DNA of 5,555 nt from UHGV virus genome UHGV-1353861. One strand, written 5' to 3'. The stretch's first letter is position 1, and each line of letters opens with the position of its first letter. The translations under genes were made by a program, and so were the position numbers. The notes below the pieces were generated by a model that was not told the DNA's origin, searched no databases, and saw only the letters and a list, made by a program, of their open reading frames with translations. Below are positions 1 to 5,555 of this stretch, one piece after another. This DNA is from a virus.

Positions 1-383
1 TTTAATGTCTGCGGATCTTGAGTAATTAAAATAATATCTTTGTTCTGATGACCATGTGTTCTTAAATCCTTGATCATAGGATTTTGCGACATTTGCCCAT
101 TATCTTCATATTCAGGACGTTTATGAATCTCATCCATGAATATAATTGAGTTATTCGGTACATCACGCCAGTCAGCAGGTGCAGGCTTAATAAAATCACA
201 TTTATCAGCATGACCGTTAATGTCTGAATAAATCTCACGAACAATATCTTTTTCAGGATCAAACTTTCCTGAATCAATGCGCTTTTGTATTTCTAAATTT
301 TTTAAATGATAGTCATACGCCATTTTTACAGAAAACTGACTTTTGCCATGTCTAGGCTGACCGACAATCATATAAATAGCCAT
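1..383 (-). CDS. Zot / pI-family filamentous-phage assembly NTPase, N-terminal ~127 codons; the ORF runs off the window start
   Basis: The minus-strand translation from the ATG at 383..381 reads MAIYMIVGQPRHGKSQFSVKMAYDYHLKNLEIQKRIDSGKFDPEKDIVREIYSDINGHADKCDFIKPAPADWRDVPNNSIIFMDEIHKRPEYEDNGQMSQNPMIKDLRTHGHQNKDIILITQDPQTL. It carries a P-loop (GQPRHGKS), a Walker-B-like IIFMDE and an ILITQ sensor-like segment, all typical of Zot/pI N-terminal domains. The start overlaps the upstream stop as TAATG. The ORF is absent from the supplied track because it is still open at the window edge. Confidence 0.85.
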   Translation of the reverse strand, partial: MAIYMIVGQPRHGKSQFSVKMAYDYHLKNLEIQKRIDSGKFDPEKDIVREIYSDINGHADKCDFIKPAPADWRDVPNNSIIFMDEIHKRPEYEDNGQMSQNPMIKDLRTHGHQNKDIILITQDPQTL

Positions 384-670
384 TATTGAGCCCTACCAAA
401 AGAAATTTTATTAATCATGAGCGTTACTTTTAAAGTACATGCACCAACAATAATTGACAGTCCATAATCAATATTGGCTAGAGAAAGAATCTGTAAAACG
501 TCAGCAGACATTCGCCCCCACTCAGTTTGAGCGTATCCAATAAGTTGTTGAAACAAAGTCATAACAACAGCACTGGAGAAGATGCCAAGCCCTAGACCTT
601 TCAAAACTGTTTTACCGAACTTGCTTAATGTCCAGTCTGCAACTGATACGAGAATTGCTTTTAAGCTCAT
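383..670 (-). CDS. pVI-like minor coat / membrane protein (95 aa)
   Basis: This is a 95-aa hydrophobic protein with several predicted TM segments. It sits between the pIII-like and pI-like genes, as gene VI does in Ff phages. Its ATG at 670..668 overlaps the pIII stop as ATGA, and its stop overlaps the pI start as TAATG, which suggests translational coupling. The call rests on position and hydropathy only. Confidence 0.55.
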   Translation of the reverse strand: MSLKAILVSVADWTLSKFGKTVLKGLGLGIFSSAVVMTLFQQLIGYAQTEWGRMSADVLQILSLANIDYGLSIIVGACTLKVTLMINKISFGRAQ

Positions 671-2022
671 ATTTCACCATCCTCGCCCTTACGACCCACA
701 CCAACAATAATCAATGCACCGGAAAGAAATCCAATAAGCGGTGCAACAAAAGACCATTTATCAGCTAACTGACAAATTGGCTCATAACTAATTTCTGTTT
801 CTCCACCAGTACCGATATTAATAGAAACTGGAATAGGTGCAGGACAGCCGGGAACACCTTTGAAAGTTGATGTATCTAAAGCACCAATATCTATTTCCTT
901 GATTTCAGGAGGATCATTATCAGAATCTTCAATTTCATCATTTTTTGCCCAATCTTTGGCTTCTGCCCAAGCTTCGGAAATTGATGTTTCCCATTCTTCA
1001 GCTTTTGAATTAGCTGTTTCCCACCACTCAGTTAATGTATTCGGAAAAGTAATAACGGTTTGAGCAGCTTCACAAATAGTTGGTGCCCAATTACAAAAAA
1101 TAGGAAATGTTAGAGAAAGATCAGTAGCTTCGGGATTTGCTTCATTTGGCTTTGCTTCTCCTTGCGCTTCATTGGCTTTTTCAGCTTCGGCAGCATCGGC
1201 AGGCTTTGTAGTTGCATTGGCTTCTGCTTGTGAAGCAATAGGACGTGCTTTAGCATCATCTTTTTCAGCTTCTGCAACAATATCAGCAGCAGCGGCAGTA
1301 GTAGCAGCTTGAGCAGCAGTATCACCGCCAGCAGCATTTGAAATTACTTTTTGTGCAACAACATCAAGAGGGATGGATTTTTCTTTATCTTTTTCAGCAG
1401 TAGGATCATAAGCAGGATTAGCAAGCCTAGAGCCTTCATTTGATCGCATTGGTGAACCATTTGCAGTTAAGTTACACCAGAAGTAACTTGTTCTATCTTG
1501 AGTAGTATCAACCTTATAAACAGTAGAACCGAGTGTATTTAAAGCAGTTACAAGCGCAGAACAAGCAGCCGATGGAGAATCAGCTTTTACAGATTTACCA
1601 AATTGACTAATTGAATATATATATTGATCAGTTGGATCAATAGAGCCATCAGAAGCAGACGGATCAGAATATTTAATCTGATTATTAGCAGGATCAAGAA
1701 CCCAATCTACAGAACCTAGCAATTGCTCAACAGCTACAGACAAAGCATAACCAGCAGCACCACGCGCAAGAACTTTAGCAACACTGGTAGCCGTTGGAGT
1801 AATTTTTACTGATGATTCTTTTATAAATTTTTTGCCATTAATGACAACATTTTTTGTAGCGTCATAAACACTAGAAGCACCTTGAGCGACTGGATTCTTT
1901 AGTTCCCAGCCACCGACAGCAGCATGAGCTGTATTTGTAAAAAATAGAGAGTAAACGAGAAGAATTGAGATTATTTTTCTTAGAAAAGTTTTGATCCAAC
2001 GATGATCCACATGATTATGCAT
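667..2022 (-). CDS. pIII-like minor coat / adsorption protein (451 aa)
   Basis: The N-terminus has a signal peptide (MHNHVDHRWIKTFLRKIISILLVYSLFFTNTAHA|AVGG). A long Ala/Glu/Lys-rich low-complexity linker follows the N-terminal domains. A C-terminal membrane anchor (FVAPLIGFLSGALIIVGVG) is followed by a short charged tail. The gene is immediately downstream of the major coat gene. A strong SD (AGGGG) lies 7 nt upstream of the ATG. Confidence 0.7.
   Translation of the reverse strand: MHNHVDHRWIKTFLRKIISILLVYSLFFTNTAHAAVGGWELKNPVAQGASSVYDATKNVVINGKKFIKESSVKITPTATSVAKVLARGAAGYALSVAVEQLLGSVDWVLDPANNQIKYSDPSASDGSIDPTDQYIYSISQFGKSVKADSPSAACSALVTALNTLGSTVYKVDTTQDRTSYFWCNLTANGSPMRSNEGSRLANPAYDPTAEKDKEKSIPLDVVAQKVISNAAGGDTAAQAATTAAAADIVAEAEKDDAKARPIASQAEANATTKPADAAEAEKANEAQGEAKPNEANPEATDLSLTFPIFCNWAPTICEAAQTVITFPNTLTEWWETANSKAEEWETSISEAWAEAKDWAKNDEIEDSDNDPPEIKEIDIGALDTSTFKGVPGCPAPIPVSINIGTGGETEISYEPICQLADKWSFVAPLIGFLSGALIIVGVGRKGEDGEI
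1125..1410. repeat. GCW/GAA-rich trinucleotide low-complexity tract encoding the pIII Ala/Glu/Lys linker
   Basis: The tract contains runs such as gcagcagcggcagtagtagcagcttgagcagcag and repeated gcttctgcttg, gcttttgcttc and gcttcggcagcatcggc. Alternate frames of this tract produce the spurious L/K-rich 75-aa ORF 1110..1337 and the + ORF 860..1063. Confidence 0.6.
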
Positions 2023-2114: not shown

Positions 2115-2384
2115 TTACATTGCTGAACGTGCCCATTTGAATACTTTGATTACAACAACCAAAGACAAAACAGCCAGTCCGATTGCTGAAACAGTGGTCA
2201 CTCCATCTGTAATAGCGCCAACAACTGAAGAAACATCAATTTCAGCAGCGTTTGCATTGGTTACAAGTGCAGCAGATACAGCAGCCCCCAAACCATACTT
2301 TTTAACAGCAGCCATAAAATTTTTACGATTACCATAAGTTTTATTCATAGCATCATTTACTTGGTCTTGCGTTAAGTGATCCAT
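2115..2384 (-). CDS. Major coat protein precursor (pVIII-like), 89-aa ORF; mature protein about 43 aa
   Basis: The C-terminal 43 aa (AEIDVSSVVGAITDGVTTVSAIGLAVLSLVVVIKVFKWARSAM) have the classic major-coat layout: acidic N-terminus, hydrophobic helix, basic C-terminus. They are preceded by a signal-like MAAVKKYGLGAAVSAALVTNANA with an AxA cleavage site. The strong SD AAGGGG 7 nt upstream belongs to the first ATG at 2384. Alternative internal starts at 2348 (MNKTY) and 2315 (MAAVKK) cannot be excluded. Confidence 0.8.
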   Translation of the reverse strand: MDHLTQDQVNDAMNKTYGNRKNFMAAVKKYGLGAAVSAALVTNANAAEIDVSSVVGAITDGVTTVSAIGLAVLSLVVVIKVFKWARSAM

Positions 2385-3174: not shown

Positions 3175-4462
3175 AGTTAATCACTGGAGGAGGTTCACAA
3201 GCATCTGCAAAACGCGGGACAGAAATATCCATGTTGTTTATTTCCTCCAATATCAAAATCTCATATTCAGCAAGAGAATTAATAAGAACATCAGCAGATC
3301 CATTACCTAAAACACCGTTTAATTTATCTTGAGTAATACAATCTAAAAACTGAGCACGTTTTTTATATTTACAAAGAAGATGAAAAGCCAAATCTTCAAT
3401 ATTTGTTAAAAATTCAGCTTCATCTAAAGTTGAATCAGCAATTTCATCATCTGAAATATCTTTAATTGAAAAAGCATGTTTAAGACCACGAGAAAACACA
3501 AGCTGTCTAGCACCCTTAAAAGCAATCGCAAATTCTTGAAATAGTTTTGATGGAAGTTTATTTTCAAAAATAACTTCATCTTTTTCCGATAGCCTAAGCA
3601 GATCAAAAGGGGTAAAAGTTTCACGACCTTTTTTTACATGCCCTTTAGTCATTTCATGCTCAATGCCCCATTTGCCAACGTATTGATCAGCATATGTTCC
3701 ATCTCTAAAATCACAGGCTATAAATTTTTCTTCTTCTTTGACTTTTCGAATACCGACAGCAGCTAGCGATGCTCTCCAGTGATCAGCCATAACTTCATGG
3801 AGTGCAGAAAATTCATGAATAGATAAATATTTATCTGAAAATACTAAAATGTGATGGTGAGGATGCCAACCATTAGACCCGTATGTAACTTCATAGTTGG
3901 TGATGTGAAAACGCTTGCCTAGCATGTGATCAAAGATATAACGACCTTTACGATCAGAGAAAAACTTCTTCATAGCTTCTTTTTGTTTTTCGCGGAGAGT
4001 AGACAAGCGATCTTGAGCATAATGGGGATTTGTTAAGGTGATTAGATATGTATAGCCTTTAACATGTTCCTCAACAAAACGCGGTGCGCCTACAAATGTT
4101 TTCGATTGTTCTACTGGAGAGTAGAGAGTAATCCCATTTTTCCAGCGTTCATTAATGGTAGCTAATTCTAAACGTCTTTTTTCAGTAATCTTTTTTGCAC
4201 AGACAGGACAAACCCAAACAGATCCACATCGGATAACGTTTCCAAAATGCGCTTTTTTAGTTGATTCATTCCAACAAACATTAACTAATTCAGACTTATT
4301 AATTTTGCGCTTTAGACAATATTTAACGCGGAATTTATGTTGAAGTAATTTTGACGCTTGATCTTGTAAAAGGTAGTCAGTGAGCCGCTTTTGATCTATT
4401 GCGGAGTGAGATTTCGTAAGTATACCAAGAGACCCAAAAATTTGACTTACAGTGTTATTCAT
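3161..4462 (-). CDS. Rolling-circle replication initiator (pII-like / phage CRI-type Rep), 433 aa
   Basis: All three rolling-circle (RCR) motifs are present: motif I YLITLT, motif II HUH (GWHPHHHILVF), and motif III with two tyrosines spaced Y-x3-Y (TYADQYVGKWG). There is also an N-terminal Cys4 zinc-ribbon-like segment (VCW..IRCGSVWVCPVCAKK). This is the largest ORF and sits next to the intergenic hairpins. Confidence 0.9.
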   Translation of the reverse strand: MNNTVSQIFGSLGILTKSHSAIDQKRLTDYLLQDQASKLLQHKFRVKYCLKRKINKSELVNVCWNESTKKAHFGNVIRCGSVWVCPVCAKKITEKRRLELATINERWKNGITLYSPVEQSKTFVGAPRFVEEHVKGYTYLITLTNPHYAQDRLSTLREKQKEAMKKFFSDRKGRYIFDHMLGKRFHITNYEVTYGSNGWHPHHHILVFSDKYLSIHEFSALHEVMADHWRASLAAVGIRKVKEEEKFIACDFRDGTYADQYVGKWGIEHEMTKGHVKKGRETFTPFDLLRLSEKDEVIFENKLPSKLFQEFAIAFKGARQLVFSRGLKHAFSIKDISDDEIADSTLDEAEFLTNIEDLAFHLLCKYKKRAQFLDCITQDKLNGVLGNGSADVLINSLAEYEILILEEINNMDISVPRFADACEPPPVINFNLA

Positions 4463-4498
4463 TTATAATGCCTATATGTGTTCGCAGTACACAGATCC

Positions 4499-4531
4499 AA
4501 AAAACCCCGCCCGCCAAGTTGGGGTTTTTTT
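4499..4531. terminator. Bidirectional intrinsic-terminator-like hairpin; also predicted to form the 5' stem-loop of rep mRNA
   Basis: The sequence is AAAAAACCCC-gcccgccaagtt-GGGGTTTTTTT. A G/C stem is flanked by an A-run on one side and a T-run on the other, so either strand reads as hairpin plus U-tract. It lies about 200 nt downstream of the pI stop and about 35 nt upstream of the rep ATG. Confidence 0.5.
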
Positions 4532-4541
4532 CTGTCTAATG

Positions 4542-4571
4542 ATTTTGATGTTTTGTTGTCATATTGTCAAT
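4542..4571 (-). promoter_or_regulatory. Candidate rep promoter sharing a conserved motif with the ssb promoter
   Basis: On the minus strand there is a perfect -35 TTGACA (4570..4565), a 17-nt spacer and a -10-like CAAAAT (4547..4542). The minus-strand motif ATTGACAATATGACAACA matches ATTGACAACATGA..ATGACAACA upstream of ssb. The predicted transcription start falls at the beginning of the 4531..4499 hairpin. Confidence 0.4.
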
Positions 4572-4578
4572 AAGAGAT

Positions 4579-4635
4579 AGACACAACGCTTCGCGTCGCT
4601 TGCGCGCCCTCAGCCGACCGCGTCGCGTTGTGTCT
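4579..4635. other. GC-rich perfect 11-bp inverted repeat (stem-loop), candidate packaging signal or replication origin hairpin
   Basis: AGACACAACGC (4579-4589) pairs with GCGTTGTGTCT (4625-4635). A further 4 bp (4592-4595 with 4619-4622) pair after a 2-nt bubble. The 35-nt spacer is about 75 percent GC in an otherwise AT-rich genome. It sits in the intergenic region between pI and rep, where inoviruses carry the morphogenetic signal and origins. Confidence 0.5.
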
Positions 4636-4675
4636 TAGTTTCATTGTTATCTCCAATGGCTATTATCATTCGACG

Positions 4676-4699
4676 AAAATGGGAACCCCAACCCATTTT
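4676..4699. other. Perfect 8-bp stem hairpin AAAATGGG-aaccccaa-CCCATTTT just downstream of the pI stop
   Basis: The hairpin is seen directly in the sequence. T or U runs flank it on both strands (CCCATTTTC on one, the complement on the other). It could be a terminator for the pI operon or an origin hairpin. Confidence 0.4.
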
Positions 4700-4705
4700 C
4701 TGGCT

Positions 4706-4794
4706 GCTCCCGATTAAAATCATAAGGGAGCTTTGTAATCAGAGAGGAGAAGTTTCAGGATTCGTTTGCATCGGTTCGGGAGCACTCCGCTCCC
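4706..4794. repeat. Four clustered copies of the hexamer GGGAGC / GCTCCC, arranged as two inverted pairs
   Basis: The copies are GCTCCC at 4706-4711, GGGAGC at 4726-4731 (inverted pair, 14-nt spacer), GGGAGC at 4778-4783 and GCTCCC at 4789-4794 (inverted pair, 5-nt spacer). The second pair lies inside the last codons of the pI gene. A GC-rich hexamer recurring four times within 90 nt of an AT-rich genome suggests protein-binding iterons or origin structure. Confidence 0.4.
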
Positions 4795-5555
4795 TCTGTT
4801 CTTGTCGGTTTTGAGCAAAATAATTAAATGGTCTATATCCGGATAGCCATTTTTTACAATCGGCCTCAGATACGTTTTCCATGTAGTTTCCTTGCTGATC
4901 GACTGCCATTAATTTTCCACTGGAGAGCTGTATCACACCGGACATTCTTGGAAAATCTGTGGGCTGCACCTGCGGAACATAATCAAAGTCATACGGTTTA
5001 TTAGGATTATAAGAAACCGTTTGTACAGTACCGCTAGAAGTCACAGAAGAACCACTTTTAGAAAGGTCATTAAACCATTTGACACATTCCGGCTTCTCTA
5101 CATTTTTGCCCTTTCTGCATTCAATATCAGGATCGAATTTTGAATTATTAGAAACTGAATTATCTGTTTTTTGATTTGCTTGAGTTTGTTCTTTTTCTAC
5201 TTTTTCGCCTGTCATACCTGATACAGCATTACGAGCCAATTTATCACCACCTGACTTTGTAAATAAGAAATATGCAGCAGACATTAAAACAATAATGGCA
5301 ATAATTGCATAAATAAACTTGCTTTGAATCTTAAAGTTAATGGAAGTATGAGCAGATGCACTTGTATACATATCCTGCCATTTCTTCTTATAGAAAAATT
5401 TATAGCTATCTTGATACTTCACTGACCTTTCAGAAGCAGCAGCTTGCCACGGATCGCGAAGCCATCTTTCAAATTCGTAGATAGTTGCAAAATTTGGTTT
5501 TTGAATTGGACGTTTAACCAGGTGCATTTTTTCAATCAGCATTCTGATTGCTTTG
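4739..5555 (-). CDS. C-terminal part (about 271 codons) of a Zot/pI-family protein; the ORF is open to the window end and is most likely the continuation of the pI gene that starts at 383
   Basis: There is no in-frame stop between the listed ATG (5542) and the window end, where KAIR precedes the M, and there is no SD upstream of 5542. The topology is a cytoplasmic segment, one TM (FIYAIIAIIVLMSAAYFLF) and an approximately 173-aa periplasmic domain, matching the C-terminal half of Zot/pI proteins. Joining position 5555 to position 1 keeps both partial ORFs in one frame through the junction codon AAC. The result is a single 399-aa protein. Confidence 0.55.
   Translation of the reverse strand, partial: KAIRMLIEKMHLVKRPIQKPNFATIYEFERWLRDPWQAAASERSVKYQDSYKFFYKKKWQDMYTSASAHTSINFKIQSKFIYAIIAIIVLMSAAYFLFTKSGGDKLARNAVSGMTGEKVEKEQTQANQKTDNSVSNNSKFDPDIECRKGKNVEKPECVKWFNDLSKSGSSVTSSGTVQTVSYNPNKPYDFDYVPQVQPTDFPRMSGVIQLSSGKLMAVDQQGNYMENVSEADCKKWLSGYRPFNYFAQNRQEQRERSAPEPMQTNPETSPL

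Follow-up and report, generated by a model that had tools for sequence, protein, structure and literature searches.

The gap between zot and rep in a viral DNA of 5,555 nt (the whole of this stretch is called the window here) holds a GC-rich hairpin, which raises the question of whether such a structure serves packaging of the phage, replication of its DNA, or neither. The window was found to be a complete circular filamentous-phage genome, because its joined ends close a 399-aa Zot ORF in frame. Zot, coat, pIII-like, and initiator families were identified in a family scan (Table 1), which bore out the filamentous-phage identity proposed in an earlier note on this DNA. All long ORFs are on the minus strand, in agreement with that note's assignment of the viral strand to the complement of the strand given. 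The initiator (Rep) contains the motifs LITLT, HPHHH, and YVGK, and Pfam family Rep_1 was found on its close homologues. It was 41 to 46% identical to the “protein rep” of non-mobilizable Acinetobacter and Psychrobacter plasmids of 2 to 2.6 kb, and based on this kinship, Acinetobacter or a relative is the most likely host. BLAST of the whole window against phage records returned no match, and a scan of reference genomes for Rep found nothing, so that no prophage or host was obtained by that route.

Table 1. Positions of the features discussed, in the window unless a related replicon is named
Feature	Position	Strand	Description
Zot-type assembly ATPase, 399 aa	383..1 + 5555..4739	minus	Family scan
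DUF2523 minor coat protein	670..383	minus	Family scan
pIII-like adsorption protein	2022..667	minus	Family scan
Inovirus Coat B major coat protein	2384..2115	minus	Family scan
Initiator (Rep), 433 aa	4462..3161	minus	Family scan
DNA block inside rep, CTCTTGGTATACTTACGAAATCT (codons LGILTKS)	4409..4431	minus	Near-invariant synonymous sites in 27 rep genes
Antisense promoter TTGACT-16-TATAAT over the rep start	4442..4469	plus	11 of 12 consensus positions, sigma-70-like
A-run/GC/T-run hairpin, AAAAAACCCC..GGGGTTTTTT	4499..4530		Reads as terminator of a conserved antisense transcript
Promoter-like TTGACA-17-CAAAAT with TGACAAYATGACAAC repeats	4542..4570	minus	Directly 3' of the GC hairpin
97-nt segment	4571..4667	minus	Replaced by CAAAA in L164 (Rep 91% identical)
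GC-rich 57-nt hairpin	4579..4635	minus	11-bp outer stem, GA/AA internal loop, 7-bp inner stem with bulged G, apical loop
24-nt core GTCGGCTGAGGGCGCGCAAGCGAC	4595..4618	minus	Near-identical in L008, pAT205-2, p8_060092, and pTR11_7
Apical 11-mer GAGGGCGCGCA, family consensus GAGGGCNCGCA	4601..4611	minus	Invariant except for the center base in 22 copies
Two small hairpins directly after the zot stop	4706-4731, 4675-4700 (9-bp perfect stem)	minus	Recur after zot in L163, L164, and L177
Type G element	L181 7186-7271; L182 ~4120-4200; L184 ~6390-6460; L001 6926-7008		Also in L183, L186, L189, L190, L193, and L194
Purine-run/CGACCGACCGA element	L011 2834-2931; L015 317-399; L156 83-176; L158 508-601; L172 428-520; L189 6827-6938		

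Between the stop codon of zot and the start of rep is a gap of 276 nt (positions 4463 to 4738), and the hairpin lies within it, with the last morphogenesis gene on one side and the replication gene on the other, where the earlier note had placed it; the gap folds into four hairpins, the GC hairpin among them. It was the only 40-nt stretch of the window with at least 65% GC and the only GC island of the genome, and the claim that its GC content is far above that of the window held (67% compared to 37% overall). The arms of the outer stem, AGACACAACGC (4579 to 4589) and GCGTTGTGTCT (4625 to 4635), are the 11-bp perfect inverted repeat already described, and a 2-by-2 internal loop separates the outer stem from the inner stem. 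The 4-bp extension reported along with the repeat exists but is larger, consisting of CGCG/CGCG plus TCG/CGA with a bulged G. The direct repeat of CGCGTCGC was also recovered (4592 to 4599 and 4619 to 4626), but not in the loop, to which it had been assigned; both copies make up the inner stem, and the second shares 2 nt with the outer stem.

Folding of the viral strand as single-stranded DNA (ssDNA), proposed earlier as a check, gave a stable hairpin of -20.3 kcal/mol (z = -3.64), and 0 of 200 dinucleotide shuffles were as stable; the given strand folded at -18.7 kcal/mol. No other 60-nt stretch of the genome folded as strongly (-20.5 kcal/mol for the hairpin, compared to a mean of -3.7 and a standard deviation of 2.3). 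Repeat, fold, and GC content confirmed the 57-nt hairpin as real. The 11-bp stem by itself is only mildly unusual and constitutes weak evidence, because 12% of dinucleotide-shuffled windows contained a perfect inverted repeat of at least 11 bp with a loop of no more than 60 nt. It is conservation in other replicons that lifts the hairpin above chance.

The 11-nt loop GAGGGCNCGCA occurred in 22 distinct copies in 252 kb of related low-GC loci, compared to 0.08 copies expected by chance. All 22 copies were in hairpins and on the rep/zot-sense strand, with none on the opposite strand. In a gapless alignment of 19 copies, 10 of the 11 loop bases were invariant, and the center base took all four values. 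Both pairs that close the loop were present in all 36 cells, each in four pair types (18 of the 19 copies being distinct), and they showed the compensatory changes among relatives that the earlier note had named as a further check (covariation score of 0.887 compared to 0.259 for shuffles, with 0 of 500 as high; slid registers, ≤0.208). The inner stem likewise differs between replicons, with GTCG/CGAC in the window and GACG/CGTC in plasmid p8_060092, and the loop tops hairpins with otherwise unrelated stems. The window's own version, GAGGGCGCGCA, is at the tip of another hairpin in L004, located between coat and pIII, and lies just inside the rep 5' end in small Rep-only replicons (L011, L015, and L173-176). 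Variants GAGGGCCCGCA and GAGGGCTCGCA top hairpins in pM131-9 and the Acinetobacter baumannii AB105 plasmid, and nine phages recovered through the window Zot carry the loop on yet other stems. A scan of viral contigs for GGCTGAGGGCNCGCAAG and CGAGGGCGCGCAGA returned matches only in contigs of at least 50% GC, with no hairpin context.

Across replicons, the motif is either noncoding or read in differing frames, and the only variable loop base is the first codon position in the window frame; the constraint therefore acts on the DNA and not on a peptide. A peptide encoded by the small ORF over the hairpin was rejected as the source of conservation for the same reason, as the motif is in other frames or noncoding elsewhere. 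The motif was found in noncoding DNA, at the rep 5' end, and at the rep 3' end, with distances between hairpin and rep ranging from ~20 nt to >2 kb. Copies in plasmids were mostly within the rep 5' end, in the first ~40 codons.

This distribution bears on whether the hairpin is a packaging signal, in which case assembly proteins would read the viral-strand hairpin for extrusion of the virion, and the carrier plasmids would be natural satellites, or phagemids, that travel in the coat of the phage. The packaging signal of Ff phages (hairpin A) is a long viral-strand hairpin that follows the last assembly gene and whose orientation matters; here, too, a 57-nt strand-specific hairpin of the viral strand is found in the zot-rep gap, and the uniform orientation of all 22 copies is consistent with such a role. 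The intergenic region of Ff phages contains the packaging signal and both origins, and the position of the hairpin therefore does not discriminate between packaging and an origin. Most of the more complete contigs recovered via the window Zot (41 to 92% identical) carry the loop, as packaging would predict. Furthermore, particles were reported to contain pTS236, a plasmid whose rep is of the same family (PMC3715749), and plasmids of this kind may thus not be packaging-free.

The carriers themselves argue against packaging, which is considered unlikely. The Ff signal is ~78 nt long and travels with the phage, whereas the copies here span 37 to 75 nt, are shared with plasmids, and are untied to a zot lineage; the element was neither restricted to packaged genomes nor found to travel with the morphogenesis module. 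Among Acinetobacter plasmids from cultured isolates, the loop was carried by pM131-9, the AB105 plasmid, pAT205-2, p8_060092, and pTR11_7. The rolling-circle plasmid carriers are 1.8 to 2.6 kb in length and contain no recognized virion (structural or assembly) genes. Some have only Rep with or without a small regulator, such as p8_060092 (1,791 nt), which codes only for Rep and a ribbon-helix-helix (RHH)-like protein (assigned by eye). No phage protein family was matched by any of 10 accessory ORFs, which were sampled from five related replicons with Rep only (two of these replicons have the motif). Presence of the loop was also independent of Zot similarity; carriers had Zot proteins 39 to 92% identical to that of the window (including L004 with 39% and L189 with 41%), but the loop was absent from L002 (45%) and L166 (42%). 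The usual location of plasmid copies inside the rep 5' end likewise counts against a packaging signal.

In most of these replicons, a single GC-rich hairpin dominates (-17 to -31 kcal/mol). It belongs to one of several sequence types and occupies various sites (the zot-rep gap, between pVI and zot, between coat and pIII, or the rep 5' end); related replicons L157 and L183 had no such hairpin. Three GC-hairpin types were common to phages and plasmid-type replicons, for example the CATCCCGTCGGCTCGCGCGGGTGCG type in phages L005 and L190 and Rep-only replicon L010. An encapsidation signal common to filamentous phages and the 1.8- to 2.6-kb Acinetobacter plasmids would make these plasmids natural phagemids and the GC-hairpin types alternative packaging specificities, which is quite unlikely. 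A three-part element termed type G, by comparison, was found right after zot in at least 10 phages, often together with a GC hairpin, that of the present loop family included, and never in plasmids. It consists of a covarying outer stem, a conserved TCAGGGGAAT, a variable inner hairpin, and a conserved AGGCGTAGTCT. Based on its placement, type G is a candidate for the packaging signal or another phage-specific site and a better packaging candidate than the GC hairpin; the window has no type G element. The L001 hairpin was rejected as a variant of the loop family, as it belongs to the separate type G element. In the simplest division of labor, hairpins that plasmids also carry would act in replication, and the element confined to phages would act in something that only phages do, such as packaging.

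Two other arrangements were observed in these relatives. Metagenome contig L008 (positions 1 to 9137) is a tandem array of ~3.5 related but nonidentical units of roughly 2.5 kb, each with its own type of GC hairpin besides an RHH-like gene, rep, and two small ORFs; the contig reflects either an array that has integrated or a chimeric assembly. A second recurrent element, usually near the rep 3' end, has CGACCGACCGA repeats after a run rich in purines (GAGGAGGAGG...; Table 1) and contains the same GAGGGCACGCA 11-mer in L022, L156, and L158.

The surroundings of the hairpin differ among the closest relatives. Rep relatives included five viral contigs at 74 to 87% identity and four more at 79 to 95%, and in BLAST comparisons these contigs kept the rep-proximal part of the gap without the GC hairpin. 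Between the zot-proximal hairpins and the promoter-like repeat, L164 has only CAAAA, and small ORFs occupy the hairpin site in L163 and L177; the hairpin thus belongs to DNA inserted at a site where cassettes vary. The 97-nt segment itself contains what is left of a small-ORF cassette (its ribosome-binding site and ATG) and then the hairpin. The junction CCAYTGGAGAnAnCAATG, which comprises the ribosome-binding site and ATG, was observed in the window (4642 to 4667, minus strand), L177 (~3925 to 3950), and L180 (2745, 2845, and 2990); it precedes short hydrophobic ORFs in relatives, and in the window the hairpin replaces the ORF.

Such an insertion, present or absent among close relatives, with a foreign base composition, varying positions, and a 24-nt core that is near-identical across unrelated flanks, could also be a selfish mobile hairpin, i.e., a miniature insertion that spreads among single-stranded replicons and has no role for its carrier. 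This is very unlikely, given that conservation is in the loop rather than at the ends, that the stems differ and covary, and that no target duplications or terminal repeats were found on inspection of the ends of the window insertion. The strict orientation bias and the presence of about one GC hairpin per replicon, not many, also speak against it. BLAST searches of plasmids and phages, with the hairpin and with two plasmid copies as queries, added three small Acinetobacter plasmids and otherwise gave chance-level matches. In the plasmid collection, the hairpin was recovered only from three small Acinetobacter plasmids, apart from one chance-level match to a large Burkholderia plasmid; this range, too, is at odds with a selfish element. 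An integron attC site or folded attP was rejected, since AAC and GTT in the window outer stem are absent from the other copies and no dif-like sequence was present.

Absence of the hairpin at this site in L164 and its replacement by a small ORF in L177 count against packaging as well, because both keep the hairpins adjacent to zot. The second of these (4675 to 4700) is identical in the window, L163, L164, and L177, and as the block recurs after zot in relatives, it travels with the zot end. The zot-proximal hairpins (4675 to 4731) are candidates for an operon terminator or a packaging signal, which would make them an alternative to the GC hairpin for packaging in the window. A conserved small hairpin, AGAGCRTCCCGNATGGGYGCGAACTG, with compensatory changes in its stem, holds the place of the 4675 to 4700 hairpin after zot in L002 (~4140 to 4170), L166 (~670 to 700), L179 (~3700 to 3725), and L180 (~2500 to 2525).

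The rest of the gap contains putative control elements of rep. A repeat similar to the TGACAAYATGACAAC type of the promoter-like site was observed at 2898 to 2945. The TGACAAYATGAMAAC repeats (4554 to 4572 and 2898 to 2945) overlap TTGACA boxes upstream of rep and between the gene for a 62-aa regulator and the next operon, respectively; relatives carry similar ones, and they look like shared operators or promoters. On the opposite strand, the antisense promoter over the rep start points into the hairpin at 4499 to 4530, and the pair was kept in 12 of 12 Rep_1 phages examined. Promoter and hairpin together predict a countertranscript of ~60 nt across the rep start and 5' end, which probably functions in copy control; such RNAs commonly set the copy number of rolling-circle replicons. 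The phiX174-like CAACTTG in the loop of the 4499 to 4530 hairpin was rejected as a plus origin, as plasmids differ there and the hairpin is explained as the antisense terminator, so that its loop need not be an origin.

A double-strand origin might instead include the GC hairpin, either as a cruciform with the Rep nick site or as a Rep-binding element. Many HUH-type initiators have nick sites laid out in this way, with a conserved loop on a GC stem that varies, and the plasmid copies lie 10 to 60 nt from a conserved CTTGGTATA block. The nonanucleotide stem-loop of geminiviruses and circoviruses also combines a conserved loop with a GC-rich, variable paired stem; there, however, Rep cuts within the loop, whose sequence follows the Rep family, whereas the loop here is independent of the initiator family. 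Carriers have initiators of four families (Rep_1, REP_ORF2-G2P, Phage_CRI with G2P_X_C, and Rep_trans), and phages with 79 to 91% identical Rep lack the motif and have other GC hairpins instead. The motif is therefore not Rep specific. Together with the wide range of loop-rep distances and the presence elsewhere of a DNA block that is universally conserved in the rep family, this makes a role in the double-strand origin extremely unlikely.

That block, within rep itself (4409 to 4431), was the sole DNA element common to the whole rep family in 27 rep genes from phages and plasmids. The LGIxTKS codons are CTT GGT ATA xxT ACG AAA TCT, with GGT in 27 of 27, CTT in 23 of 27, ATA in 19 of 22, and ACG in 22 of 27 sequences, whereas synonymous sites in other conserved Gly, Leu, and Thr columns of rep varied freely. 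Located 150 nt 3' of the hairpin, the block (CTTG/G) is a candidate for the nick region of the double-strand origin; the corresponding sequence for comparison is CTTG/ATA in pC194 and phiX174. The origin predicted for pTS236 is 12 bp long and precedes the UUG start codon (PMC3715749). Close to that predicted position, a small hairpin (4477 to 4492, minus strand) was observed just upstream of the rep ribosome-binding site in the window, and it is also present in L015, L013, and L160. Its stem covaries, with TGTGT/ACACA in the window and TGTAC/GTACA, TTGTA/TACAA, and GTTG/CAAC in plasmids, and plasmids repeat the 5' half of this type of hairpin after the ribosome-binding site.

Because the GC hairpin is on the coding strand and would be transcribed, a role at the RNA level was also considered, as a stabilizer, terminator, or attenuator or, in plasmids, as a brake on rep translation. 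The location of plasmid copies in the first codons of rep would suit the last of these. The L004 copy, which follows the coat gene and has A7 and T9 flanks, looks like a terminator, and a weak terminator-like match was found over the 3' half of the window hairpin. Most copies, including that of the window, have no T-run, and a terminator or stabilizing hairpin would not be expected to keep an 11-nt loop invariant while its stem changes freely. The positions of the copies are also very varied, no Rfam family matched the hairpin, and a tRNA scan found nothing relevant. A function in RNA is accordingly improbable, at about the same level as a selfish element.

The best explanation of the hairpin is a host-recognized single-strand origin (of the sso or ssi type), which in the phage would be the minus-strand origin; this is given about an even chance of being correct. 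The earlier note had offered a packaging signal or an origin, and of these the evidence favors an origin, of the complementary strand, while packaging is weakened by the plasmid carriers. Plasmid carriers and varied initiators argue against both a Rep nick site and a signal for assembly proteins. Plasmid pTS236, of the same rep family, makes single-stranded intermediates (PMC3715749), and replicons of this kind therefore need a function that starts the complementary strand. After infection or rolling-circle displacement, the plus strand would be coated by single-strand-binding protein, and the GC-rich stem would stay folded and expose the 11-nt loop. A host priming factor (primase, RNA polymerase, or a primosome protein) may then bind the loop and lay down the primer for complementary-strand synthesis. 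Specificity would reside in the loop, and the stem would need only to pair. The element would be an exchangeable cassette, one of several GC-hairpin types and usually present once per replicon, and in Acinetobacter-like hosts such cassettes would move among filamentous phages and small plasmids with rolling-circle replication.

Known single-strand origins share several of these properties. Origins ssoA, ssoT, ssoU, and ssoW are strand- and orientation-specific folded elements of the displaced strand, and the fold and fixed orientation of the loop copies agree with this. They are also exchangeable cassettes found with different Rep families; the window hairpin similarly behaves as a modular cassette that is independent of the initiator, given its four Rep families and the other hairpins of close Rep relatives. 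As in the window hairpin, ssoA has a short conserved sequence in a terminal loop and variable stems. The ssoA loop contains the hexamer TAGCGT/A (CS-6), and ssoA also has an RSB site, whereas the hairpin has AAGCGA and AAGCGT and no TAGCG, and no RSB-like site was identified in it. Hosts also differ from those of the sso plasmids, being Gram-negative Moraxellaceae here, and the element is often inside the rep coding region.

The minus-strand origin of Ff phages (f1/M13) is, like the window hairpin, a viral-strand hairpin structure in the gap between morphogenesis and replication genes, upstream of rep. Hairpins B and C of the Ff origin mimic a sigma-70 promoter, whereas here a single GC-rich hairpin bears an 11-nt loop motif; there is no sequence similarity, and the only promoter-like site is outside the hairpin (4542 to 4570). 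The G4-type and phiX174-type ssi signals are stable hairpins that single-strand-binding protein does not cover and that attract the priming proteins of the host directly, and they occur in phages and plasmids, as does the loop family; no sequence relationship was established with them, and the Escherichia coli primase triplet CTG adjoins the loop in only some copies. Several observations count against a single-strand origin: the lack of a GC hairpin in L157 and L183, the frequent type-A copies in Zot-recovered phages, for which packaging could account as well, the terminator-like look of the L004 copy, and stems that contain neither -35/-10-like hexamers nor a match to any known sso signature.

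In a literature search, no packaging signals or single-strand origins were found described for Acinetobacter filamentous phages or plasmids, nor was the GAGGGCNCGCA loop family. The kind of element is already known, and a sequence family with this distribution appears to be new. If packaging, the less likely reading, were true, clinically common small Acinetobacter plasmids could move in phage particles. If the hairpin is a single-strand origin, it would represent a recognizable class of such origins in Gram-negative rolling-circle replicons, with a fixed 11-base loop on a free stem. The loop would then be a marker for annotating replicons of Acinetobacter plasmids and filamentous phages and a handle for finding the host priming factor, and it could help to improve the stability of Acinetobacter rolling-circle vectors. 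It would also mean that phages and plasmids of this host group exchange replication cassettes.
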